From Dimargaris cristalligena (Eukaryota), in assembly GCA_003614675.1 (NCBI GenBank), contig ML002427.1:1-32108 (forward strand): a DNA stretch of 32,108 nt, in the 5' to 3' direction. The notes beneath the pieces are model-generated. The model was not told where the DNA came from. It saw nothing but the letters and a program-made list of their open reading frames with translations, and searched no databases. Every line of letters begins with the position of its first letter. Within the stretch, counting starts at the first letter, position 1. A program made the position numbers and the translations under genes. Shown in pieces: positions 2,771-14,059 of this stretch.

Positions 2771-3223
2771 TTATGCCACGTATGTCTTCTTACAAACCAT
2801 GCTGGCCGTCCCAATAAAACTATCCATAATTAAAGCCATACAACACATCATTATAGGTCTATTCTGATTTATCGCTAGGAATCTCGCAGTCTCCGGATCC
2901 AGTTGTTCCTCTTGGTCGTCTGAGCGAAATTCGCCCTCATGATCTATAAGTCCGAGCAAATGGGCCAAATTTTGGCATTGGTCCTTGAGGCCAGCTCTCT
3001 GTTCTCTAGTGAGTTCCACTTGTCCGGGTTTCATATTTCTATAGGCGTCAGAAAAACTGCTGTTAAGCTCTTCCAATAATGGATCGTACCGAGTGGTGGT
3101 GGACTGCTCCGCATTGGCGGGCAGGTAGCGTGAAGAGTTCGAGGGAGAGCGGTCAATGGGTTGGGCAATAACGGCGCATCCTAAAACCAGGAGGAGCCCT
3201 GGGACTACGGAGATGAAGCGCAT
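2771..3223 (-). CDS. Small putative secreted protein, ~150 aa, no recognised family
   Basis: ATG at 3223 gives MRFISVVPGLLLVLGCAVIA|QPID, a signal-peptide-like start. Single ORF to TAA at 2771; TATA-like (AT)n ~100 bp upstream. Confidence 0.7.
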   Translation of the reverse strand: MRFISVVPGLLLVLGCAVIAQPIDRSPSNSSRYLPANAEQSTTTRYDPLLEELNSSFSDAYRNMKPGQVELTREQRAGLKDQCQNLAHLLGLIDHEGEFRSDDQEEQLDPETARFLAINQNRPIMMCCMALIMDSFIGTASMVCKKTYVA

Positions 3224-3325
3224 GGTGTTTAGTTGGGGAGGCGGTAAGAAATAGGGGAATAGACTCAAAAATAGATAGGATGTCGATGTAAGGGTAATGG
3301 ACAGTAAAAAGTTCCGCTGGGATAC

Positions 3326-3345
3326 ATATATATATATATATATAT
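3326..3345. repeat. (AT)n run, possible TATA element of the secreted-protein gene
   Basis: atatatatatatatatatat about 100 bp upstream of the minus-strand ATG at 3223. Confidence 0.6.
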
Positions 3346-3508
3346 AATTAGATCATGATTTTTCTCGAGAGGGGGGGCAGGGGGTGGTATTATATAGGAG
3401 TGCGCGCCGAAATCCCCACCCGTCGATATCTTCATAATATCATGTTTCTATTCAGTGACCTAATTGATAGTATCGCCCTTTCCTTCTCTTATCCTCTCCC
3501 CTTATTAT

Positions 3509-3522
3509 CGTTAATAGATGCC
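3509..3522 (-). repeat. Split direct repeat B2 (element 3' terminus)
   Basis: cgttaatagatgcc is identical to 3822-3835. The match is 19 bp when the adjacent ATTAT is included (3504-3522 = 3817-3835). Confidence 0.85.
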
Positions 3523-3680
3523 GTCGACGTTTTGTTATTTATTGGCGATACTTATTTCGCACAATGGACAAGTCCACGGTCTATAATAACCGAAAGGTCG
3601 TCGTGCACATGTGTAAAGAACACGGCAGAGACAAATTTTGATAGTAAAAATAGAATAACCTAATAGGGTCGGATGGTAGG

Positions 3681-3821
3681 AAGGAATAAAAGAAGGAGAA
3701 AGATAGAGAAACAAATTTTCGCTAGAAAATTTTTCCTTTCTACTTCGGGGAAAGTAATATTTTTACGGAAAAATTTTTCTTTCCCCTCTATTAACATAAT
3801 AAGTTTGTATAAACGAATTAT
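3681..3821 (-). repeat. Split direct repeat A2
   Basis: 141 bp matching 7769-7908 with one substitution and one 1-bp indel. Confidence 0.97.
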
Positions 3822-3835
3822 CGTTAATAGATGCC
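3822..3835 (-). repeat. Split direct repeat B1, abutting A2 (B1A2 = copy of the predicted circle junction)
   Basis: Identical to 3509-3522 and directly contiguous with A2. Confidence 0.85.
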
Positions 3836-3999
3836 TATTCCCAATAACCCTACCTCTCGAAATGACGACTCCATTACACTGGAGTTGTCCTTCAGGCTTT
3901 CATAAGCCTCTAAATATAGATAAATGGGATAGACTAAATGAATGGAAACACCTCGAGGATAAACGGGAAAACCAATATAACTGAAAGTATTGAGAATAT

Positions 4000-6891
4000 T
4001 TAAATGATAAACGAAAATATAAGCTGTAACTCTGGCTGATAAGGTAAAACTACTCGGCAATAGGCCCGCATTGTTTCCAAAGCCTCCCATCGACCCCAAT
4101 CCAATACTCTTAGTGGGTCCACCTTAGCTGCCAACATCCCCGCAACCATAGTCTTCCTTAAGCTATGTGATGAATATGCTGATGTAATAGCTTTCTGATG
4201 TCCCAAGGATTCTAACAGTGCATGGAGACACCGGGTAACCCAGGCCGCTGGGTTTGATTTAAAGGTTAACCACAGGGTAGTTGTTTTGACGGATGCCAGA
4301 TATAAACCAATGATCTCCTTAAAGGCTGGGCATATTGGATTAGCTACTCGATGAACCCCCTCTAGATGTGCCTTACGTTTTTCACCGCTGATAAAAATAG
4401 ATAAAGTTTGGCCCTCAAGGCTCACATCTTGCCTTCGTAAACTGGCTAGCGAGCTGGCCCGTAGGCCGAAGATAATACCAATAATAAACAGGGTAGCCCA
4501 TTCTAACTGCACCCCATTGGGCTTCCACCCGAGGGTATAGAGATGCTTGTACAGGTGTGTAGGTATCGGCCGGGCTCCCTGTGGATCCTTCGACTCGGGG
4601 AAGTCTTGATAAAAGGTTACAGCATATCCTTTACGAAACTGTGATGCAGCCTCCTCGGAGAATCTGACCCGACCATATATGATCCTATCGAATTTTGACA
4701 AAGGTGCCAGTTTTCCAGGCAATGATCGGGGGTTCACCCTCAATGTGTACAGGTGAACCAGATATGCGACTAGGGTAGTATTAGAAACGGGGTGTGCGAG
4801 ATGACCAGTGGACTGGCAGAACTGTAAGAATTGCTGGTGGTGGTGTTCATAGGTCTTCCAGGTCGCCTTGGCAAGACTATTGAGCATGATGGTCTTCGCT
4901 AAATCATTTTCTTTAAGACTAGGGGCCAAATGGGATAGCCAGTGATCAGTAATCTGGGAGGCATAATTTCCCTGAAACTGGAGTGCCGTTAGAACCGAGC
5001 CACAATCATTTTCCAATGCCGATTCATGAATGGTTCTGGGAGTAAATTGATGGACCCTGCTGGCGGAATTGCCCACTGGCCCTGGATCGGTAACTCTTGA
5101 ATTGATTTCGCAGACTCGACAAGGGGGGGCCACCATGGTTGGCTCTTCCAAAGAGGCAGAATAATTGTCCCTTGAGCCCGCTCTTGAATTATCTTTGCTA
5201 TCACCCGATTGATTATGCCGAAGGGGGGATTGAACCACCCGTTTTCCTGTGACCAATCGAGGGAGAAAGCGTCCTGGCCGACTGCTCTTGGATGGTGCTT
5301 CAAGGTGCAATAGCGGGGCAGCTGGGCGTTCCAGGGGCTTGCAAACCAGTCGATGGTGTGCGGCCCAAATGAGTGCTCGAGGGACACGAATAACTCCTGG
5401 GCTAGTTTCCAATCCCCGTGCTGATTGATCCGGGACAGAAAGTCGGCTTCGGTGTTGAGAATACCTGCTAAATGTTGAGCCCCGCCAAAGATTGTGATGT
5501 TGTTCCTGGCCACCAAGGTCCAAATTCGGCGAACTATTTGATTTAGCAGATGGCTCCGTGATCCGTAACCGTTTATTGCTGCCACCACGCTGGTAGCATC
5601 TGTTCTTAGTTGGATCTGGTGACCGATAATCATTGGTAGGCTCCTCTTCAAGGCCTCTTCGACAGCCATGAGCTCCAAAGCGGTAATATGGAGTTGGGCT
5701 TCCTCCTGAGTCCACATCCCATGGCCAAGGGCGGAATTGTAAGTCCACCCGAAGCCCTGGGAGCTGGCATCGGTGGTCAGAGTGTGTGTCCGAACCGGGG
5801 TCTGAATGGGGTAGCTCAATTCCGGGTCTAAAAGGGTGTGGTATAACCGTTTTAGGTCCCGACAAGCAGCATTGGTTAGTTTGATGGTCGCATCCCAATT
5901 TTCCTTGGTTGTCAGGCACTGGTATAGTGAGCGTAGGTACATTCGAACTGCAGGGAAGACCAACCGGGCTGACTGGATTAACCCTGTCAAGGAGGCTAAG
6001 GCCCGGGCCTTTACTACCCGTTTCTGTTGGGCAACCTTGCGGAGGAGATGGTGTACCTGGCCTGTCAGTTTTTCGCGGAACTCGGAGGTAAGCATGAACT
6101 GCATCCGGGGGATATCTAGAGTTAATCCCAGGTGTTGTATGACTGCCACTGGGTCCCACTGGCACTTCTTGGGGTGGGGGCGGAGGCCCAGGGAATGAAT
6201 TAATTCTTGTACCCTGAGGGACGTAGACTGCATTTTGGTGGACGAACCTGAGCAGAGGACTAAATAATCGTCCAGATAGGGTAAGCAATTCAACTTCCAT
6301 GAGCGAAGGGTAGTAGTAAGGGTTTTCATTGTTTTGCAAAAGAAAAAAGGAGACAACTTCCAGCCAAAGGGAAGAGTATTGAACTGGTAAAGTTTCCCAA
6401 GTAACCGAGTCTGGAAGAACCCTTGGAAATTCCGGTGGATTCCAATTGCCATATAACCATCCTTTAAATCGAAGGATATCGCGCGCTGGTCCGGCTGGAT
6501 ATAATTGCGCACTGCGTCCCAGGTTTCGTAACGCATCGTGCGTGACCGACAGAATGTATTTAAGTACCTCAGATCGGTGATAAGGCGGTACCCGCCTCCT
6601 TTGCGGGGGATCAAGAAGGAGGGGGAGACAAAGGTACCGTGGGGTATCTCCCGAATTGCCCCAGCCAATAGCATCCGCTGGATCTCGGACTGCATAAACC
6701 CCACTTCGTCTGGGCTGGCTAAGGGGCACTCGGGGATATTGAAAGGGGGTGGGGGCCCCTCCTTCCAAGGAATAGCAACCCCATGTTTGATCCAATCGAG
6801 AACATGGGGGGAGGTTTTTAGGGAAGCCCAAGTGTCCACTGCTGACCTGACCTGCAAATGCAGAGGTCCCTCCTTGGACGGGCTGTTGGAG
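4000..6891 (-). CDS. ORF3: tyrosine recombinase (YR domain in the C-terminal ~295 aa from ATG 4887); frame open from 6891
   Basis: Catalytic set GLRASSL (R), SGEKRK (K), SHSLRK (HxxR, 4156-4167), GRWEA (W), MRAYC (Y). Preceded by a LAKATWKTY..FLQFC core-binding region. The true start is uncertain. Confidence 0.92.
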   Translation of the reverse strand, partial: LQQPVQGGTSAFAGQVSSGHLGFPKNLPPCSRLDQTWGCYSLEGGAPTPFQYPRVPLSQPRRSGVYAVRDPADAIGWGNSGDTPRYLCLPLLLDPPQRRRVPPYHRSEVLKYILSVTHDALRNLGRSAQLYPAGPARDILRFKGWLYGNWNPPEFPRVLPDSVTWETLPVQYSSLWLEVVSFFLLQNNENPYYYPSLMEVELLTLSGRLFSPLLRFVHQNAVYVPQGTRINSFPGPPPPPQEVPVGPSGSHTTPGINSRYPPDAVHAYLRVPRKTDRPGTPSPPQGCPTETGSKGPGLSLLDRVNPVSPVGLPCSSNVPTLTIPVPDNQGKLGCDHQTNQCCLSGPKTVIPHPFRPGIELPHSDPGSDTHSDHRCQLPGLRVDLQFRPWPWDVDSGGSPTPYYRFGAHGCRRGLEEEPTNDYRSPDPTKNRCYQRGGSNKRLRITEPSAKSNSSPNLDLGGQEQHHNLWRGSTFSRYSQHRSRLSVPDQSARGLETSPGVIRVPRALIWAAHHRLVCKPLERPAAPLLHLEAPSKSSRPGRFLPRLVTGKRVVQSPLRHNQSGDSKDNSRAGSRDNYSASLEEPTMVAPPCRVCEINSRVTDPGPVGNSASRVHQFTPRTIHESALENDCGSVLTALQFQGNYASQITDHWLSHLAPSLKENDLAKTIMLNSLAKATWKTYEHHHQQFLQFCQSTGHLAHPVSNTTLVAYLVHLYTLRVNPRSLPGKLAPLSKFDRIIYGRVRFSEEAASQFRKGYAVTFYQDFPESKDPQGARPIPTHLYKHLYTLGWKPNGVQLEWATLFIIGIIFGLRASSLASLRRQDVSLEGQTLSIFISGEKRKAHLEGVHRVANPICPAFKEIIGLYLASVKTTTLWLTFKSNPAAWVTRCLHALLESLGHQKAITSAYSSHSLRKTMVAGMLAAKVDPLRVLDWGRWEALETMRAYCRVVLPYQPELQLIFSFII

Positions 6892-6920
6892 CTAATCCTG
6901 ACGAGTGCCAGGCTTACCCA
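4989..6920 (-). CDS. ORF2 pol: reverse transcriptase + RNase H + DNA adenine methyltransferase-like domain
   Basis: RT: FDLKDGY, LPFGWKLSP, YLDD (6267-6278). RNase H: TTDAS, ALELMA, RTDAT, NTEADFLSR. MT: IDWFAS..NAQLPRY..DAF..W..NPPF (5220-5231)..QPWWP. Frame is open from 6920; first ATG is at 6695. Confidence 0.96.
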   Translation of the reverse strand, partial: WVSLALVRISSNSPSKEGPLHLQVRSAVDTWASLKTSPHVLDWIKHGVAIPWKEGPPPPFNIPECPLASPDEVGFMQSEIQRMLLAGAIREIPHGTFVSPSFLIPRKGGGYRLITDLRYLNTFCRSRTMRYETWDAVRNYIQPDQRAISFDLKDGYMAIGIHRNFQGFFQTRLLGKLYQFNTLPFGWKLSPFFFCKTMKTLTTTLRSWKLNCLPYLDDYLVLCSGSSTKMQSTSLRVQELIHSLGLRPHPKKCQWDPVAVIQHLGLTLDIPRMQFMLTSEFREKLTGQVHHLLRKVAQQKRVVKARALASLTGLIQSARLVFPAVRMYLRSLYQCLTTKENWDATIKLTNAACRDLKRLYHTLLDPELSYPIQTPVRTHTLTTDASSQGFGWTYNSALGHGMWTQEEAQLHITALELMAVEEALKRSLPMIIGHQIQLRTDATSVVAAINGYGSRSHLLNQIVRRIWTLVARNNITIFGGAQHLAGILNTEADFLSRINQHGDWKLAQELFVSLEHSFGPHTIDWFASPWNAQLPRYCTLKHHPRAVGQDAFSLDWSQENGWFNPPFGIINRVIAKIIQERAQGTIILPLWKSQPWWPPLVESAKSIQELPIQGQWAIPPAGSINLLPEPFMNRHWKMIVARF

Positions 6921-7593
6921 CTACGGGGTTTGCCTTAGCACTATCAGAATTAGTAGTCTGTGATCTGACCGCGACCTGAGCTGCAACCGCGGTTTCCTGA
7001 TCACGTTTCTTGGCCATAAACTGTGAAATGAGTCCTTGTAATCGTAACGAGCTATTGGAGACTAAATCGCTCTCGTCCATCATCCGGATGGTATTCGCAA
7101 CCTTCACGCCTTCGGTGACCTTGATCCGATTAAGTGTCAAACGGGATAAAAGTGTCCCATCGATTGCACCAGCAAGAATCCGCACTATATAGGCCACTCG
7201 CGGGTCGGACGAAAAACCCGGGTTAATTGACTCGGCGTAAGCTAATCCGGTAACGATCAACGATAAGAGGGATTGCCCAGCGAAATATTCCTCTCGGGAT
7301 TCTAATGCCATACTGGTGGAATAATTGTCACTATAAGAACGGACGATCCGAGACTCGGGGGGTAAATGGGAGAAGGGGAGGAGATAATCCACCCACTGGC
7401 TGATTGGCTGACGTTCACGCGCATAAACTGCAGGGCGGAAACTACTAGGAACATGTAGTAAGGCATCAGGAAGGTGTTTATCCTGGAGGTTACAGCCTCC
7501 CTGATCAATTGGGTGGGTAGCCTGTCGCCCGCTAATCAGTTCGGTGAGGAGGTTCTCCATGGTTTTGAAACGTTCTTCAAGGGGATTTGACAT
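6892..7593 (-). CDS. ORF1: putative gag-like protein, ~233 aa
   Basis: First long ORF inside repeat A1, ATG at 7593. Assigned by position; no zinc knuckle seen. Confidence 0.7.
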   Translation of the reverse strand: MSNPLEERFKTMENLLTELISGRQATHPIDQGGCNLQDKHLPDALLHVPSSFRPAVYARERQPISQWVDYLLPFSHLPPESRIVRSYSDNYSTSMALESREEYFAGQSLLSLIVTGLAYAESINPGFSSDPRVAYIVRILAGAIDGTLLSRLTLNRIKVTEGVKVANTIRMMDESDLVSNSSLRLQGLISQFMAKKRDQETAVAAQVAVRSQTTNSDSAKANPVVGKPGTRQD

Positions 7594-7768
7594 ACTGGAG
7601 AAACTAAAAGCCACGAGAGGTAGGGCGTAAATGGTAGGGATTAAACTGAGATAACTATTATACTAGATCAGGGATAGGGGAACCTTATGGACTGAAAGGG
7701 GACGAAACTAGGAAGGATCGGTAGTATATAGACCAAAATAAAACGATCACTACCAAACTTTTATTCAC

Positions 7769-7908
7769 AAGGAATAAAAGAAGGAGAAAGATAGAGAAAC
7801 AAATTTTCGCTAGAAAATTTTTTCTTTCTACTTCGGGGAAAGTAATATTTTTACGGAAAATTTTTCTTTCCCCTCTATTAACATAATAAGTTTGTATAAA
7901 CGAATTAT
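7769..7908 (-). repeat. Split direct repeat A1 (element 5' terminus)
   Basis: 140 bp near-identical to 3681-3821; similarity stops sharply after ATTAT at 7908. Confidence 0.97.
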
Positions 7909-8178
7909 GCCAAAATTGATGACCTTTATGAAATAACCAACTGCAATTAGCCCACACGGTACTTCAAGCAAGACCAGTTACCAGGACATCGCTAGAGGCA
8001 TTAATAGAGGGGTATATTTATAGAAGAAGAAAGGCAGTACAGGGCAGGCTCAGATAATAATATTCTTTAGCGCCATACCAATATTGGGGAAATCGCAAAA
8101 TAAGGTCATCAATCGGTTTAGGAAAAAAAAAAGCGGATGGCAAACCGAATACGCTTGAAGGGATAGGGTGACATGCGT

Positions 8179-11100
8179 TTAATACCCCAGTGCTTGCAGC
8201 CGTTTCTTAATTTCCTGGGCTTTGGCACAGGTTTGCACAATCATGAACTGCTCGTTTTCCAAATCCCGCTGGAGGTTGGAGGAGGTGTGCGGCTCGATTT
8301 CCTTCTCCACTGCCACGGGGATAGTTTCGGGTTGGCTGGTAGTAAGGGGGGTACCTTTCAAAGAAAATGACTTGCGGGATCGAGTAGGCAACCCGTAGGT
8401 GTCTAGGGCCGAGAAGGGCGAGTCGGCTGGGGAGGTGGTTGCACTGTGACTGCCGTCCGGTCGGTTGAGACCTAGCAAGCCGCCTGGTGTCCCCGGCGGA
8501 GGGGGGGATTTGAAACTGAAGCTGCGCTGTGACTGGTGTTTTGGTGGGGTGGATCCCTGCTTCAGAGTATGTAGCGCCTCTTCTAAACGCTCGGCCTTGA
8601 TTTCCAGACCCTGGTTGTCCCGTATGAGTTTATCCATCCGCTTGAGTTCGTCGTAGTAATTGCGCTCTTCGGGGGTAAGGATAGGCTGGTTGATCTCGGT
8701 GAGTTTCTGCAGTAGCCGATCGTACCGGTTCGCTAAATCGGTCTGGGTCTGTCGGAGGTGCTTAAGTTTAGTCAGGGTCTGCGTTTGTTTGTGAATCAGA
8801 TGGTTGTGCAACTCGTCGGTTTTTTGGGCAACAACATGGGCCTGGCGATCGTGCTCCTGTACCTGAAGAGCAAGCCTGGGGAGCAGTGTACAAGGATCGA
8901 ATATAAATAATCACTAGGGTTAGTACCACTGATTGATAACAAAAAAAAAACGGGACCAAGACTAATTTTAAGAGACTGTACGTTTTATCATAAATATAGA
9001 TGATGCGGTGCAATAGTCCAGCCGGGTCCCGTAAGGCGAGTCCAGTTTAACCCATCAACCGCATTCAAAAGTACTTACCGCTCCTGTATCATGGCATCAG
9101 TGACACCAATATTGGCCACCTGGTTCATCAATTCGGTCACGCAATCACCGAAATACTTGACATTGTCTTCGGTCAGTTCCACCCCGATGATTTTGCGGTT
9201 ACCCAGTTCGCTTTGGCCGTCCACCAGAACCGTGGTGGGTTTACGGGCCTGGCGATCTAGTTCGGGGGGCACCGTGAAGGCGGGTAGAGGCAGTTTGGGC
9301 AAATACTTGACGCCGTCCAGGCCCGGGCACTGGGAAGTTGGTTCGCCGGTCCTGGTGGTGTTTTCACCGGTCGCGGAACGCAACAGTGACCCGGGCATAT
9401 CGGCCATATCCATAAGGGACTCGTAGCGAATGCTTAACTCCAGTCCGACAAACTCCCGGCTGCGCGTCATCATGCCTAACGCGTAGGACAGATATACGTC
9501 ATTGAAGGCCAGCAGCCCGGTGATGGGCACCCCCAAACTCGTAGGCAAGGGCTGGGTGCACACGACCCAGTCGACATTGGACAATATGTCCCGGTTTACT
9601 AGCGCTGGGTCGAGTTGGTGGTTGGGATTGGGGTCGGTGGTTAGCGCAGCAGTGGTACTAGGGTCAACGACCTCCGTCGATTTCCGACCCAGTGGGGAAT
9701 CGGGTGGTGCACCGGGTTCAGTGGAGTCTTCGGAATACGCCGCATGACACAGTCGGCGGTACCACTTTTCGATATCGATACTGTGGACCCCCTGTTGGTG
9801 GTAGGCATAGACGGTATGGATATATAGTGGATCCGCCACTAGGGTCACATGGCTGTTAGTGGGGTTATCGTCGTCCTGGTCGATTGTGTCCGCCACAGAG
9901 GCGGAGATGGAGGCGCCTGACCCCGAAGGTTGGGACGAAACGTCCAGGGGATTTCGGGCCAGGGCCGTGACTGGGGCCAGCGGAGGGGCCGTTTCCAACC
10001 CCAGGTCAATCGACTCGTAGGATACAAGCACGGGCAGTTTGCCGCCCAGCAAAAAGGTGCCATCCGCTATGCTATCCATGGCCCACTGGGGCACGACCGG
10101 CTGCAACTGGAGATAAAGGTCGATTTGGCCGTGTTCAAATGCCACTGCAAGCGCGCCGAACGGCTGAACATCGAGGCACAGAATACTACAGGCGCTGGGG
10201 CTGTGGTCCACTAGTTCCGGGGGGGCCGGCTGGAGAAGGTAGGGTCCGACGGGAAGGGGTTTCATACGGACGAAAGGCCAAGTGACCCGAACCATTTCGG
10301 TATCGGCGGAAGACGAAGGGGATTCCGCCGTCGCGGGCTTGGGGGACCGTATGCTGGCGGAGACGGCGGTATCTTCCAGGCGGGCCAGCCACTGTTTAGT
10401 ATAGAGTAACTGGGTCGGGTGGATGAGGGGGGTGCTAGGCCCGGTGGTGGATACGAAATTCCCGTAGCCATCGACTTCGGTCAGGGCGGAGTGGGATTCA
10501 AACAGCATTCGGATATTTAAGGACATGGTGTCAAGCAGGGAGCGGGGGCAAATGGACTCATGCGGCATGTAGGGGGCCAATGAGTAAATATCGCCGTTCT
10601 TCATAAGCACATACACGGTGAAGACCGACCAGCTCGGTTTGGTAGACCCGGCGAGGTGACCAGAGGGGATGGGCCGTGTAAGGGCAGTCAGCTCTGAACT
10701 GTGGCCTAAGCAAAAATCGGCTGCCTCGTGGGTGTCCAGATCCGCCCCGAAGGCGTGGTAGGAGCCCGTGCGACGGGGGGGAGTGCGACGACTGCGCGTA
10801 TCGGCGGTACTAAAGTGATGGGTCTGTTCGGGCCGCTCCAGGCTCTTGACGACGTTGAACATGCGCAAGACGCCGTCGGTACCCAACACCATCAGATGGA
10901 CGTGGTTGCTACTAAGCGGGTGCCAGTGGATACGCGTTAGACCGTTGGAGAAGCGGGGATTATAGAGCGTGGGCGCTAGGGCGAAACCCTGGCAACGTAA
11001 AATGTCACCTTGGTCGTAGGCCGCCCCGGGGCGCGGTAGGCTGGCTACGGTAATTTGATATAGGCCCATGATGGCCAAGAACCGGCCCCCACTGTTGATG

Positions 11101-11708
11101 GCGATGGCCTGGATCGGGAAGGCGGGCTGGGTCACTCGCACCACCGCGTACGGGATCCGAGCGGCGCACTGCCGTAACCAATGGGTGTCAAAATCAACGT
11201 CGAGGCTTGCCTTGGGCTGGGTGGCGCCGGGTTCTGGACTTCCGTTTCCGGCGCGGGGGGTGGTCGTATTTTGGGCCTCTAGCCATTTCTGCTGTTGCGT
11301 TTCGTAGTTTGATAGTTCCTCCAACCAAACGTCTTTACACCGCTTGAGGTTCACGAGGCGGATTTCCACGCCCTGGACTACCACAAACAGGTCATGGCCG
11401 CGGAGGGCCAATGACCGGGTCGTGTAGCGTCCGAACCCGTCGGACTCGGCCCGCCACTGGGGTTGGTGCAGAAAGGCCAGGCCCTCGGTTAAGTCGCGGA
11501 GGGACGTTTCAAAGGACGGTGGGTCGGCAGCGGAAGCCGGGGCGGGTGCGGGTACGGTCTGGGGAGCGGATGAGACCGCGAGGCCGGCTAAGCTAATATC
11601 AAGGGCTAATGCGTCTGAATCGGGGTCCGTGGGTGGGGCGGAAGGGAGATCTGCCGTGAACACGGAGTGCTGGCCGAGCAGAGACAGCCAGCTGAGGTGA
11701 TCCGCCAT
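8179..11708 (-). CDS. NUP82: Nucleoporin Nup82/Nup88-like, 2 exons (11708-9079, 8875-8179), ~1108 aa
   Basis: Beta-propeller-type motifs (INSGGRFLAI, IHWHPLS..HLMVLGTDGVLRMFNV, WSVFTVYVLMKNGDIYSLAP) and a C-terminal coiled coil. GTAAGT donor, TACTAAC branch point and CAG acceptor join the two ORFs in frame. Confidence 0.82.
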
Positions 11709-12336
11709 TACGAGTCACTGATGGGGGAGAGCTTTCGGGGATGCGAGGGTCTCTGAATTAAGTATATAATAAAACGGAAGGTTTGGACGAGAAACGGGTG
11801 GAAAACGTGTACTGTGGATATGTAGGAAGGAATGTAACTCTGAACGGGGGGTGGAAGTTTAAAAATGCTAATGTGATTTAAAGGGGAGTGAATGCTGAGG
11901 CTTGCTCGACTGCCTTGGGAAAAACGGGAGGTTATACAGGTGGTGGCCTGGTGGAGTGGACAAGTAGTTTAAACAAAAACACACTCCGCTCTTTGCCAGG
12001 AGAAATCTGTACTTCTTATGAATAATGGAACCTAGGTTAGCCTAGCTGGCTCGCCTATGGAAATAATAAATGATAGTAGAGTATAGTATAGAGCATATAA
12101 CTGGGATCAACTGGCAGACACAAAGGTGATCAAAAAGGTTTAGCCTATCCGCTTTTTACTCTCTTGTATAATTAATCCAGGAATCTACCTGATGCTGTTG
12201 TATATATGTATAGATATATAGGAATGTATCAACAACAGAAGAACCTTATCAAATTAGAAAACCATTAGACCATATTTATTGGGTTTCGGGTTATTTGAAA
12301 GAAGCACGAAATCTGTGGAAAGGTGAGTCAAATGAC

Positions 12337-12646: not shown

Positions 12647-14059
12647 TTAGTGGGTGTTAGGCTTGAGGTTGGAGGCATCGAAACCGGGCATGGGGAACTG
12701 AGTGGCGAAAGCCTCCACATCGGTGCGGAGCTGGGCCACCTCGGGACTGTCCTCGACAACCTTCAGGAAGTCCTTGAGCATGCGGCTACCGCACTGCTCC
12801 TGGGCCTTGAGACCAATCTGGACGGCACGGTGCAGGAACTCGGCGACCTTCACAAAGTCGGCCTCCTTGAAGGAGCGGGAGGTCAGGGCCGAAGTACCCA
12901 AACGCACACCACCGGGGGTGACGGCGCTCACGTCACCGTGGACGGCGTTCTTGTTGAGGGTGATGTTGGCCAGATCGCACAGCTTCTCGACCTTGCTGCC
13001 GGTGAACCGCTGGGGACGGAGATCCCAGAGCACGGAGTGGTTGTCGGTACCCCCGGTGACGAGCTTGTAGCCATAGCCGGTCAGGGCCTCGCCCAGTGTA
13101 CGGGCGTTGGCACGGACCTGCTTAGCGTAGGCCACGAATTCGGGGGAGGCCGCCTGCTTGAGGGTCACAGCGACGGCGGCAATGGTGTTGTTGTGGGGAC
13201 CGCCCTGGCACGAGGGGAATACGGCCATGTTCACGCGGCCCTCCAGACCCTTGTTGCGGGCCTCGGTCGAGTTGCGGCGGAAGAAGATTAGACCGGCGCG
13301 GGGGCCGCGCAGGGTCTTGTGGGTGGTGGTGGTGACAATATCGCAGAACTCAAAAGGGTTGGCGGCCTCGTGGGTGGCAACCAAACCGCTAATGTGGGCC
13401 ATATCCATCATAAGGTAGGCGTCGTGCTCGTTGGCGACCTTGCGCAGACGGGCGTAATCCCACTCACGGGGGTAGGCGCTGGCACCGCAGATGAGCACCT
13501 TGGGGCGGAACAGCTTGGCGTTGGCCTCCAAGCGGTCGTAATCGATGTAGCCGGTGACGGGATCAACCTGATAAGGCATGGACTGGAAGTAGATGGACGA
13601 GGACGAGATCTTCTTCTTGGCGGTCTGGTAACCGTGGGTCAAGTGACCACCTGAAGGGAGGTCCAGGCCCATGATGCGGTCCTGGGGGCTGATCAGGGCG
13701 GTGAAGGCGGCGAAGTTGGCGGTACTGCCGGAGTAGGGCTGGACATTGACGCCCCATTCGGTAGGGTCCAGGTGGAAGGCCTCCAGAGCACGCTTCTGGC
13801 AGAGCAGTTCGATCTGGTCAATGTACTCGTTACCACCGTAGTAACGGGCGCCGGGCAGGCCCTCGGAGTACTTGTTGGTGAGACAGGTACCATTGGCCTC
13901 GATCACAGCCTGGGAGGTGAAGTTCTCGGAAGCAATGAGCTCGAGGCCGGAGAACTGGCGGTACTTCTCCTTCTCGACCAGGTCGTTGATCTCGGGATCA
14001 TAGTCGGCCAAAGGCACGTTCATGATGGAGTTGTAGGGCTCGACGGGGTGGGGAGACAT
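12647..14059 (-). CDS. SHM2: Serine hydroxymethyltransferase, probably cytosolic, 470 aa
   Basis: [43 protein letters not shown] (PLP lysine), QGGPHN. ATG at 14059 with no mitochondrial presequence. Confidence 0.97.

Follow-up and report, generated by a model that had tools for sequence, protein, structure and literature searches.

A probable PAT-like tyrosine recombinase retrotransposon with split direct repeats in the fungus Dimargaris cristalligena

A 32,108-nt stretch of the Dimargaris cristalligena genome (contig ML002427.1, positions 1 to 32,108; hereafter, the window) carries a retrotransposon with a tyrosine recombinase (YR), split direct repeats, and a methyltransferase (MT) domain, which raises the question of whether the PAT-like group of YR retrotransposons also occurs in fungi. 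Fungal YR retrotransposons have been described as DIRS1-like (in early-diverging fungi) or Ngaro (in Basidiomycota). An earlier note on this DNA named the same two kinds, in agreement with the survey in PMC3783388 and with passages of PMC13465315 (2026), in which fungi are still assigned DIRS and Ngaro only. The main text of PMC3783388 lists DIRS and Ngaro alone for 177 fungal genomes, does not contain the word PAT, and places MT-bearing fungal elements under DIRS, with no PAT category. In passages of PMC3266345 and PMC6681497, 11 PAT-like families and six PAT-like references, respectively, include none from fungi, and fungi are absent from the main text of the preprint 10.64898/2026.05.21.726589. 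The suggestion that this is an undescribed fungal PAT-like lineage is consistent with the literature searched, where we found no report of a fungal PAT-like element (Repbase, Dfam, and subscription reviews such as Poulter and Butler 2015 are outside this scope). Provisionally, the element is therefore apparently the first-reported fungal member of a group known from algae and animals.

The element occupies positions 3504–7906 on the minus strand (4,403 bp), with AAT at both termini; other genomic copies, together with loose contig ends from public runs, fix its boundaries. Read from 7906 to 3504, its order is A1-gag-pol(RT-RH-Dam-like MT)-YR-B1/A2-158 bp spacer-B2, so that the layout, strand, and domains first described stood with small corrections. 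Repeat A1 (7769–7906, minus strand) is 138 bp long and likely holds a candidate promoter and transcription start; the 140 bp given before included two host bases (7908 and 7907), as all four distinct body-linked 5' ends begin at the AAT equivalent to 7906 and are preceded by differing bases. Comparison with other genomic copies thus confirmed the terminus at 3504, whereas the other moved from 7908 to 7906. Repeat A2 (3681–3819, minus strand) is 139 bp long; over 138 bases, a single substitution and a single indel separate it from A1, a near identity that indicates a young insertion. Repeat B1 (3817–3835, minus strand) opens with GGCA, and its last AAT is also the first three bases of A2, so that an end-to-end junction is stored inside the element. 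Repeat B2 (3504–3522, minus strand), the right terminus, also has AAT as its last bases and matches B1 (3835–3817 against 3522–3504) exactly over 19 bp; in the 14-bp repeat reported earlier, the AAT common to A2 had been omitted. The spacer between A2 and B2 (3523–3680, 158 bp, minus strand) is element sequence kept in all copies, likely a 3' UTR, and contains AATAAA (3538–3543, minus strand), a candidate poly(A) signal 21 nt upstream of B2. Both ends share the AAT core amid unrelated flanks, with no longer target duplication, and the two ends are not linked by any inverted repeat among the 25 longest of the window. An imperfect palindrome of about 40 bases lies inside repeat A (7835–7873 and 3747–3786) and is possibly a hairpin or protein-binding site.

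All open reading frames of the element are on the minus strand, and the YR is not inverted. ORF1 (6892–7593, 233 aa) is gag-like, has no internal stops, and lacks a CCHC finger and any Pfam match; a weak Atlas lead pointed to LAP2alpha-bearing clusters (score 0.87). The pol frame (4989–6920, 643 aa, +1 to gag) is also free of internal stops and encodes RT (YLDD at 6278; RVT_1, E = 1.7e-17), RNase H (TDAS at 5774), and a Dam-like adenine methyltransferase domain (5100–5414). Pfam matches for RNase H were under the cut-off, but its D/E/D/D residues were invariant in a 30-sequence alignment. The MT domain exceeded the cut-off of PF05869 (E = 8.1e-11; 42.3 bits, cut-off 28.1), and its NPPF motif is intact at 5231; activity is at most predicted from this motif, and passages of the preprint 10.64898/2026.05.21.726589 describe the motif of such domains as conserved, yet report no activity in E. 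coli. The word intact needs one qualification: the first ATG of the pol frame is residue 76, past the conserved N-terminal block, and a frameshift, a splice, or a non-ATG start would be candidates for the start of translation.

A third open frame (4000–6891, minus strand, 963 codons, −1 to pol) covers all of pol and carries the tyrosine recombinase domain at its end (4000–4965; Phage_integrase, PF00589, E = 5.9e-9), where the R, K, HxxR, W, and Y residues were found. Over pol, 624 codons of this frame contained 0 stops, whereas synonymous shuffles gave 16.1 ± 3.1 and none of 500 was as low; the pol-overlap frame was also stop-free in 12 of 17 relatives. By comparison, stops were at chance level in copies of a diverged subfamily of the same genome that are 84% alike after pol and have no YR match (L005/L119 on C704 and L012 on C2192): 23 versus 24.5 in a copy with pol fully open (L119), and 20 versus 18.4. 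Because the frame is stop-free here and has chance-level stops in YR-less copies, we conclude that it is held open for the recombinase. A decayed copy of a second family that keeps YR remnants was ambiguous (14 stops, 19.3 expected). The long frame starts right behind the TAG stop of ORF1, with which it is in frame, and this position suggests readthrough, although just 7 of 16 relatives have their gag and long frame in register. The recombinase would thus probably be the C-terminus of a long protein crossing the entire pol overlap, with readthrough of the gag TAG as the simplest route; internal ATGs at 5136 and 4887 make a separate YR start conceivable. We also considered an intron linking gag to the downstream frames, which was unsupported, as the GT donor was absent in two of six copies.

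We investigated relatives of the element in metagenomes, where 35 of 99 pattern hits were confirmed, giving 34 loci. Seven of these, representing six families, read as A...B1-A2-spacer-B2, and most of the remaining loci were truncated or collapsed. The distance from B1 to B2 in the six families was 315–479 bp. Loci L084, L085, L089, L092, L093, and L103 resemble the element in their short B, spacer, stop-free overlap frame, and NPP motif, which was present in the MT of all seven metagenome loci checked, and their B opens with GGCA, GAGCA, or GTGAGCA. They differ in pol, with only 32–34% identity, and in a longer B (23–49 exact bases versus 19). The short B and the spacer had been called atypical, a view that we do not share, since both occur in the six related families and are therefore common in the group; in addition, A2 and B2 are apart in the published VIPER/SIRE (PMC6681497) and nematode-form Pat1 (PMC4157794). 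None of 32 pattern hits in viral contigs was confirmed. In prokaryote genomes, 1 of 11 was: a DIRS-order pol (L117; JBCBKP010000055.1, 1–3840) on a 3.8-kb contig of a Planctomycetota MAG, which is probably eukaryotic carry-over or contamination.

To assign the element, we applied the definitions of PAT-like, Toc3, Pat1, and kangaroo elements from PMC4157794. As in PAT-like elements, pol contains RT, RNase H, and MT, the recombinase is a tyrosine recombinase and not a DDE integrase, and split-repeat ends share a short core; the combination of split direct repeats with MT, already recognized from the sequence, was thus substantiated by PF05869 and by ends fixed by copies. The gag without a zinc finger and the YR on the same strand match the Toc3 form (Chlamydomonas TOC3/TOC1), which also shares the MT-bearing pol and the A1-B1-A2-B2 repeats as defined there. 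The element is likened to this form by layout and differs from it in its fungal host and in its B of 19 bp (about 10 bp in a sister family). Pat1-like elements (Panagrellus PAT and SpPat1) and kangaroo likewise combine split direct repeats with MT, but the gag here has neither a CCHC pattern nor a Pfam match, unlike the zinc-finger gag of Pat1, the YR is not inverted as in kangaroo, and, as a further difference, the internal repeats follow the YR instead of lying between MT and YR.

Fungal DIRS1-like elements (Prt1 and those of Rhizopus, Allomyces, and Coemansia; PMC3783388, PMC3266345) share the RT-RH-MT pol, the YR, a trinucleotide core at both ends, and a long ORF overlap, a feature known per se in DIRS1-like elements (PMC3266345). 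However, unlike these and the DIRS1-like elements resident in the same genome, the element has neither inverted terminal repeats (ITR) nor an internal complementary region (ICR); it falls in a clade apart from the latter. Ngaro and VIPER/SIRE share the A1-ORFs-B1A2B2 order and solo AB units with the element but lack MT. The earlier placement outside both DIRS1-like and Ngaro elements therefore agrees with the structure. A Ngaro element with a captured methyltransferase would account for the repeat order, as Ngaro, which occurs in fungi, likewise has its repeats arranged A1-B1-A2-B2 behind the YR (PMC3783388, PMC4157794) and DAM domains transfer between retroelements (passages of preprint 10.64898/2026.05.21.726589), but it is highly improbable, given that all seven relatives checked carry an MT with the NPP motif and that the survey text of PMC3783388 records no Ngaro in early-diverging fungi.

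The RT-RH tree retained 39 of 50 rows, after removal of 11 that were short or near-duplicate, and three Ty3-type RTs of this genome served as its root; none of the rows is a named sequence of PAT, TOC3, kangaroo, or Ngaro. The two split-repeat families resident in the genome were sisters (support 100/99). All six metagenome rows with split repeats and two algal proteins (Pyropia and Pedinophyceae) fell with them in a 22-row group, whose support of 94/93 was not starred and which contains several long branches. A branch with 97/99 support set the split-repeat families, namely the resident ones and the six metagenome rows, apart from the ITR/ICR elements of the genome, and a single clade of all resident elements was rejected (AU p = 0.0001, for a group defined after the first tree was viewed). 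Likewise, the YR had matches among split-repeat relatives, at E = 3e-14 to 6e-5, and none to the decayed ITR copies of the genome. Neither protein searches with the element nor cluster look-ups had a PAT, TOC3, kangaroo, or Prt1 record among their matches, and the YR protein search returned no match at E ≤ 1e-5. The closest named relatives were algal (Pedinophyceae and Pyropia), and the best protein matches outside the genome were at 39% or less. As the tree has no named PAT reference, PAT-like membership rests on structure together with this indirect tree. The element could alternatively belong to a DIRS1-like lineage that acquired split direct repeats independently, PAT-like in its working yet outside the PAT clade, because the structure of YR elements is homoplastic and the PAT group is nested among Dirs1-like elements according to passages of Szitenberg et al. 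(PMC4157794), and named references are absent from the rows. We regard this as unlikely, since the element was apart from the resident ITR/ICR elements in both the tree and the AU test and split repeats occur in all six neighboring families with readable ends. We therefore read the element, with a probability of roughly 0.8, as an intact and recent PAT-like YR retrotransposon of the Toc3 layout, for which we propose a replication model; its host, of Dimargaritales, would contain two or more old families of the split-repeat kind, this one included.

The genome contained at least 48 matches to the element (40 of 108 candidates were scored), and a 29-nt pattern of its 3' end had 59 genomic matches versus 0 for the reversed control. 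We distinguished 58 3'-end contexts, of which 27 were solo A-spacer-B units, 11 were B1-linked, and 20 were partial or at a contig edge; two pairs resemble assembly duplicates, and the left ends of a few solo calls are unclear. All 58 distinct 3' ends stop at the base equal to 3504 amid unrelated flanks, and contigs from three public runs likewise diverge at 3503/3504, with none spanning an empty site. Because 58 distinct loci end alike amid unrelated flanks, the spacer and B2 are element sequence, and the view that the element stops at A2, with both belonging to host DNA, is already refuted; the copies ending at A2 that would have favored it were not seen. Among the 27 solo units, 19 had AAT and 5 had TAT as their left core, which was unclear in the remaining 3. 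One solo unit of the second family (L015; G000:C1794:562-1007) is inserted in the A repeat of a first-family copy, and because it interrupts that repeat, the empty site is visible and the 3-base core is readable. In run X5, element contigs (near-identical) in window positions 2800–8600 had depths of about 3,150–3,660 versus 173–202 in the flanks, which hints at a higher copy number in that sample, and runs X1 and X2 differed. Within-contig inverted duplications were seen at L009 (C1932) and L136/L137 (C941), possibly by amplification or as assembly chimeras, and copy counts may therefore be slightly inflated.

The eight families with both B copies offer a possible reason for the short B. B starts with GGCA in five families and with AGGCA, GAGCA, and GTGAGCA in one each. 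The 30 nt upstream of B2 contain A[AG]TAAA in seven of the eight families, and those upstream of B1 in none (Fisher p = 0.0014; the motif was picked after sequence inspection, the families are related and not independent, and L103 lacks the motif). The distance from this poly(A)-like signal to CA was 14–19 nt in six of the seven families. In the family of the element, AATAAA upstream of B2 was retained in 52 of 57 3' ends; further AATAAA occur at 7765 and 5577. Purine richness upstream of B1 (fraction 0.70 here, 0.25–0.65 in the seven other families) did not support a polypurine tract as a general feature.

We propose a sequence of replication steps that combines the general DIRS-order model with the anatomy of the element, and in which the start, end, and splicing of the RNA are presumed from sequence. 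The RNA would start inside A1 and be polyadenylated at the GGCA opening B2, about 19 nt past the AATAAA of the spacer, and it would therefore lack the outer part of A and nearly all of B. The internal B1/AAT/A2 junction would hold both missing ends pre-joined and could therefore be the template by which reverse transcriptase rebuilds the ends and closes a circle. The recombinase would then cross the AAT of the circle with a chromosomal AAT, or sometimes TAT. This follows the circle-and-recombinase model with a trinucleotide core at both ends in PMC7192593, where DIRS-1 cDNA is described as accumulating mostly as linear single strands, which is why the circle is a model here. B could be as short as 10–19 bp because it would be only what lies past the RNA end, to be restored from B1. 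Later recombination between A1 and A2 would leave solo A-spacer-B scars, and rare loss between B1 and B2 would leave a copy terminating at B1. In fact, 1 of 16 B1 junctions (on C1198) leads into unrelated DNA: this copy (L011/L038; C1198:1700-1727) stops exactly at the AAT of B1, and its 5' end is beyond the contig. The full proposal, namely that PAT-like elements have their first fungal lineage here (two or more old Dimargaritales families) in a minimal form, with B as the DNA past the poly(A) cut, the spacer as 3' UTR, and YR made via readthrough, is tentative, and we put it at slightly below even odds. If true, it would expose a general rule for split-repeat retrotransposons, in which B is joined via a conserved stretch of some four bases, GGCA.

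The solo units might instead be mobile on their own, like SIRE, or be mini-circles excised and re-inserted by the recombinase. SIRE corresponds to the A2-B2 region of VIPER, and its mobility is left open in passages of PMC6681497. Solos outnumber body-linked ends (27 versus 11), their left cores are clean AAT or TAT, and the B1/A2 junction inside the element also has the form of a recombinase site. However, solos were mixed with body-linked ends in a DNA tree of the 3' ends (8 label changes versus 9.6 when shuffled, with 72 of 500 shuffles as low), where they formed no clade of their own and no self-spreading subfamily was seen; repeated recombination between A1 and A2 would produce such a mix. 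Solos also have no B1/A2 template, and no intact permuted or tandem junction of spacer-B2 with A was found, all 14 good B/A junctions being of the B1 type. Furthermore, solo AB repeats of Ngaro are interpreted as recombination products in passages of the literature. Mobile solos thus seem doubtful, though less so than the alternative origins weighed above, and we favor recombination scars.

The genome also houses other YR families. The second split-repeat family (L122) has 38% pol identity, an A of 142 bp, and a B of 10 exact bases, and decayed DIRS1-like elements with ICR-type repeats were found at L131, L134, L135, L138, and L141. At least two old split-repeat families and true DIRS1-like elements thus share one genome; long residence follows from the mere 38% identity between the two families and from old decayed copies. 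The YR-less subfamily described above, non-autonomous with pol kept and YR gone, is analogous to TOC1 relative to TOC3; TOC1 reportedly has a unique segment between A2 and B2. PAT-like elements beside true DIRS1-like ones in one fungal genome would amount to a third fungal YR group, and this coexistence suggests that some elements filed as fungal DIRS are misfiled. The very short end repeat hints at how split-repeat elements rebuild their ends. We found no experimental test of the replication of such elements in the literature, and this element, being compact and intact, with a B of 19 bp, a candidate poly(A) site, and YR-less copies as natural controls, offers concrete mutations for one.

Finally, we examined the host. 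The SHMT encoded in the window (12647–14056) was 82–85% identical to proteins of Tieghemiomyces, Dispira, and Dimargaris, versus 77% or less for the other listed proteins, a pattern that indicates a host in Dimargaritales, which we take to belong to Zoopagomycota (Kickxellomycotina). This, together with 36 Zn2Cys6 matches in the genome, bears out the fungal host assumed previously; comparison of SHMT with PDB gave no lineage information. The chance that algal or protist DNA contaminated the assembly and brought in the element is practically negligible: its nearest named relatives are algal and the assembly contains inverted duplicates, but fungal genes lie on the same contig, the two families and old decayed copies speak for long residence, and even the best outside matches are, as noted, distant. 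Other host genes in the window are a weak Nup54-like (8179–8910) and a Nup88-like gene (9075–11714), and positions 8179–29478 presumably also include genes for a multi-C2H2 protein, a NIP7-like protein, and a ribosomal L13a-like protein. On the other side of the element, a 149-aa ORF (2771–3220, minus strand) has a signal-peptide-like start and no Pfam match, and its ATG has the 3' end of the element 284 bp upstream.
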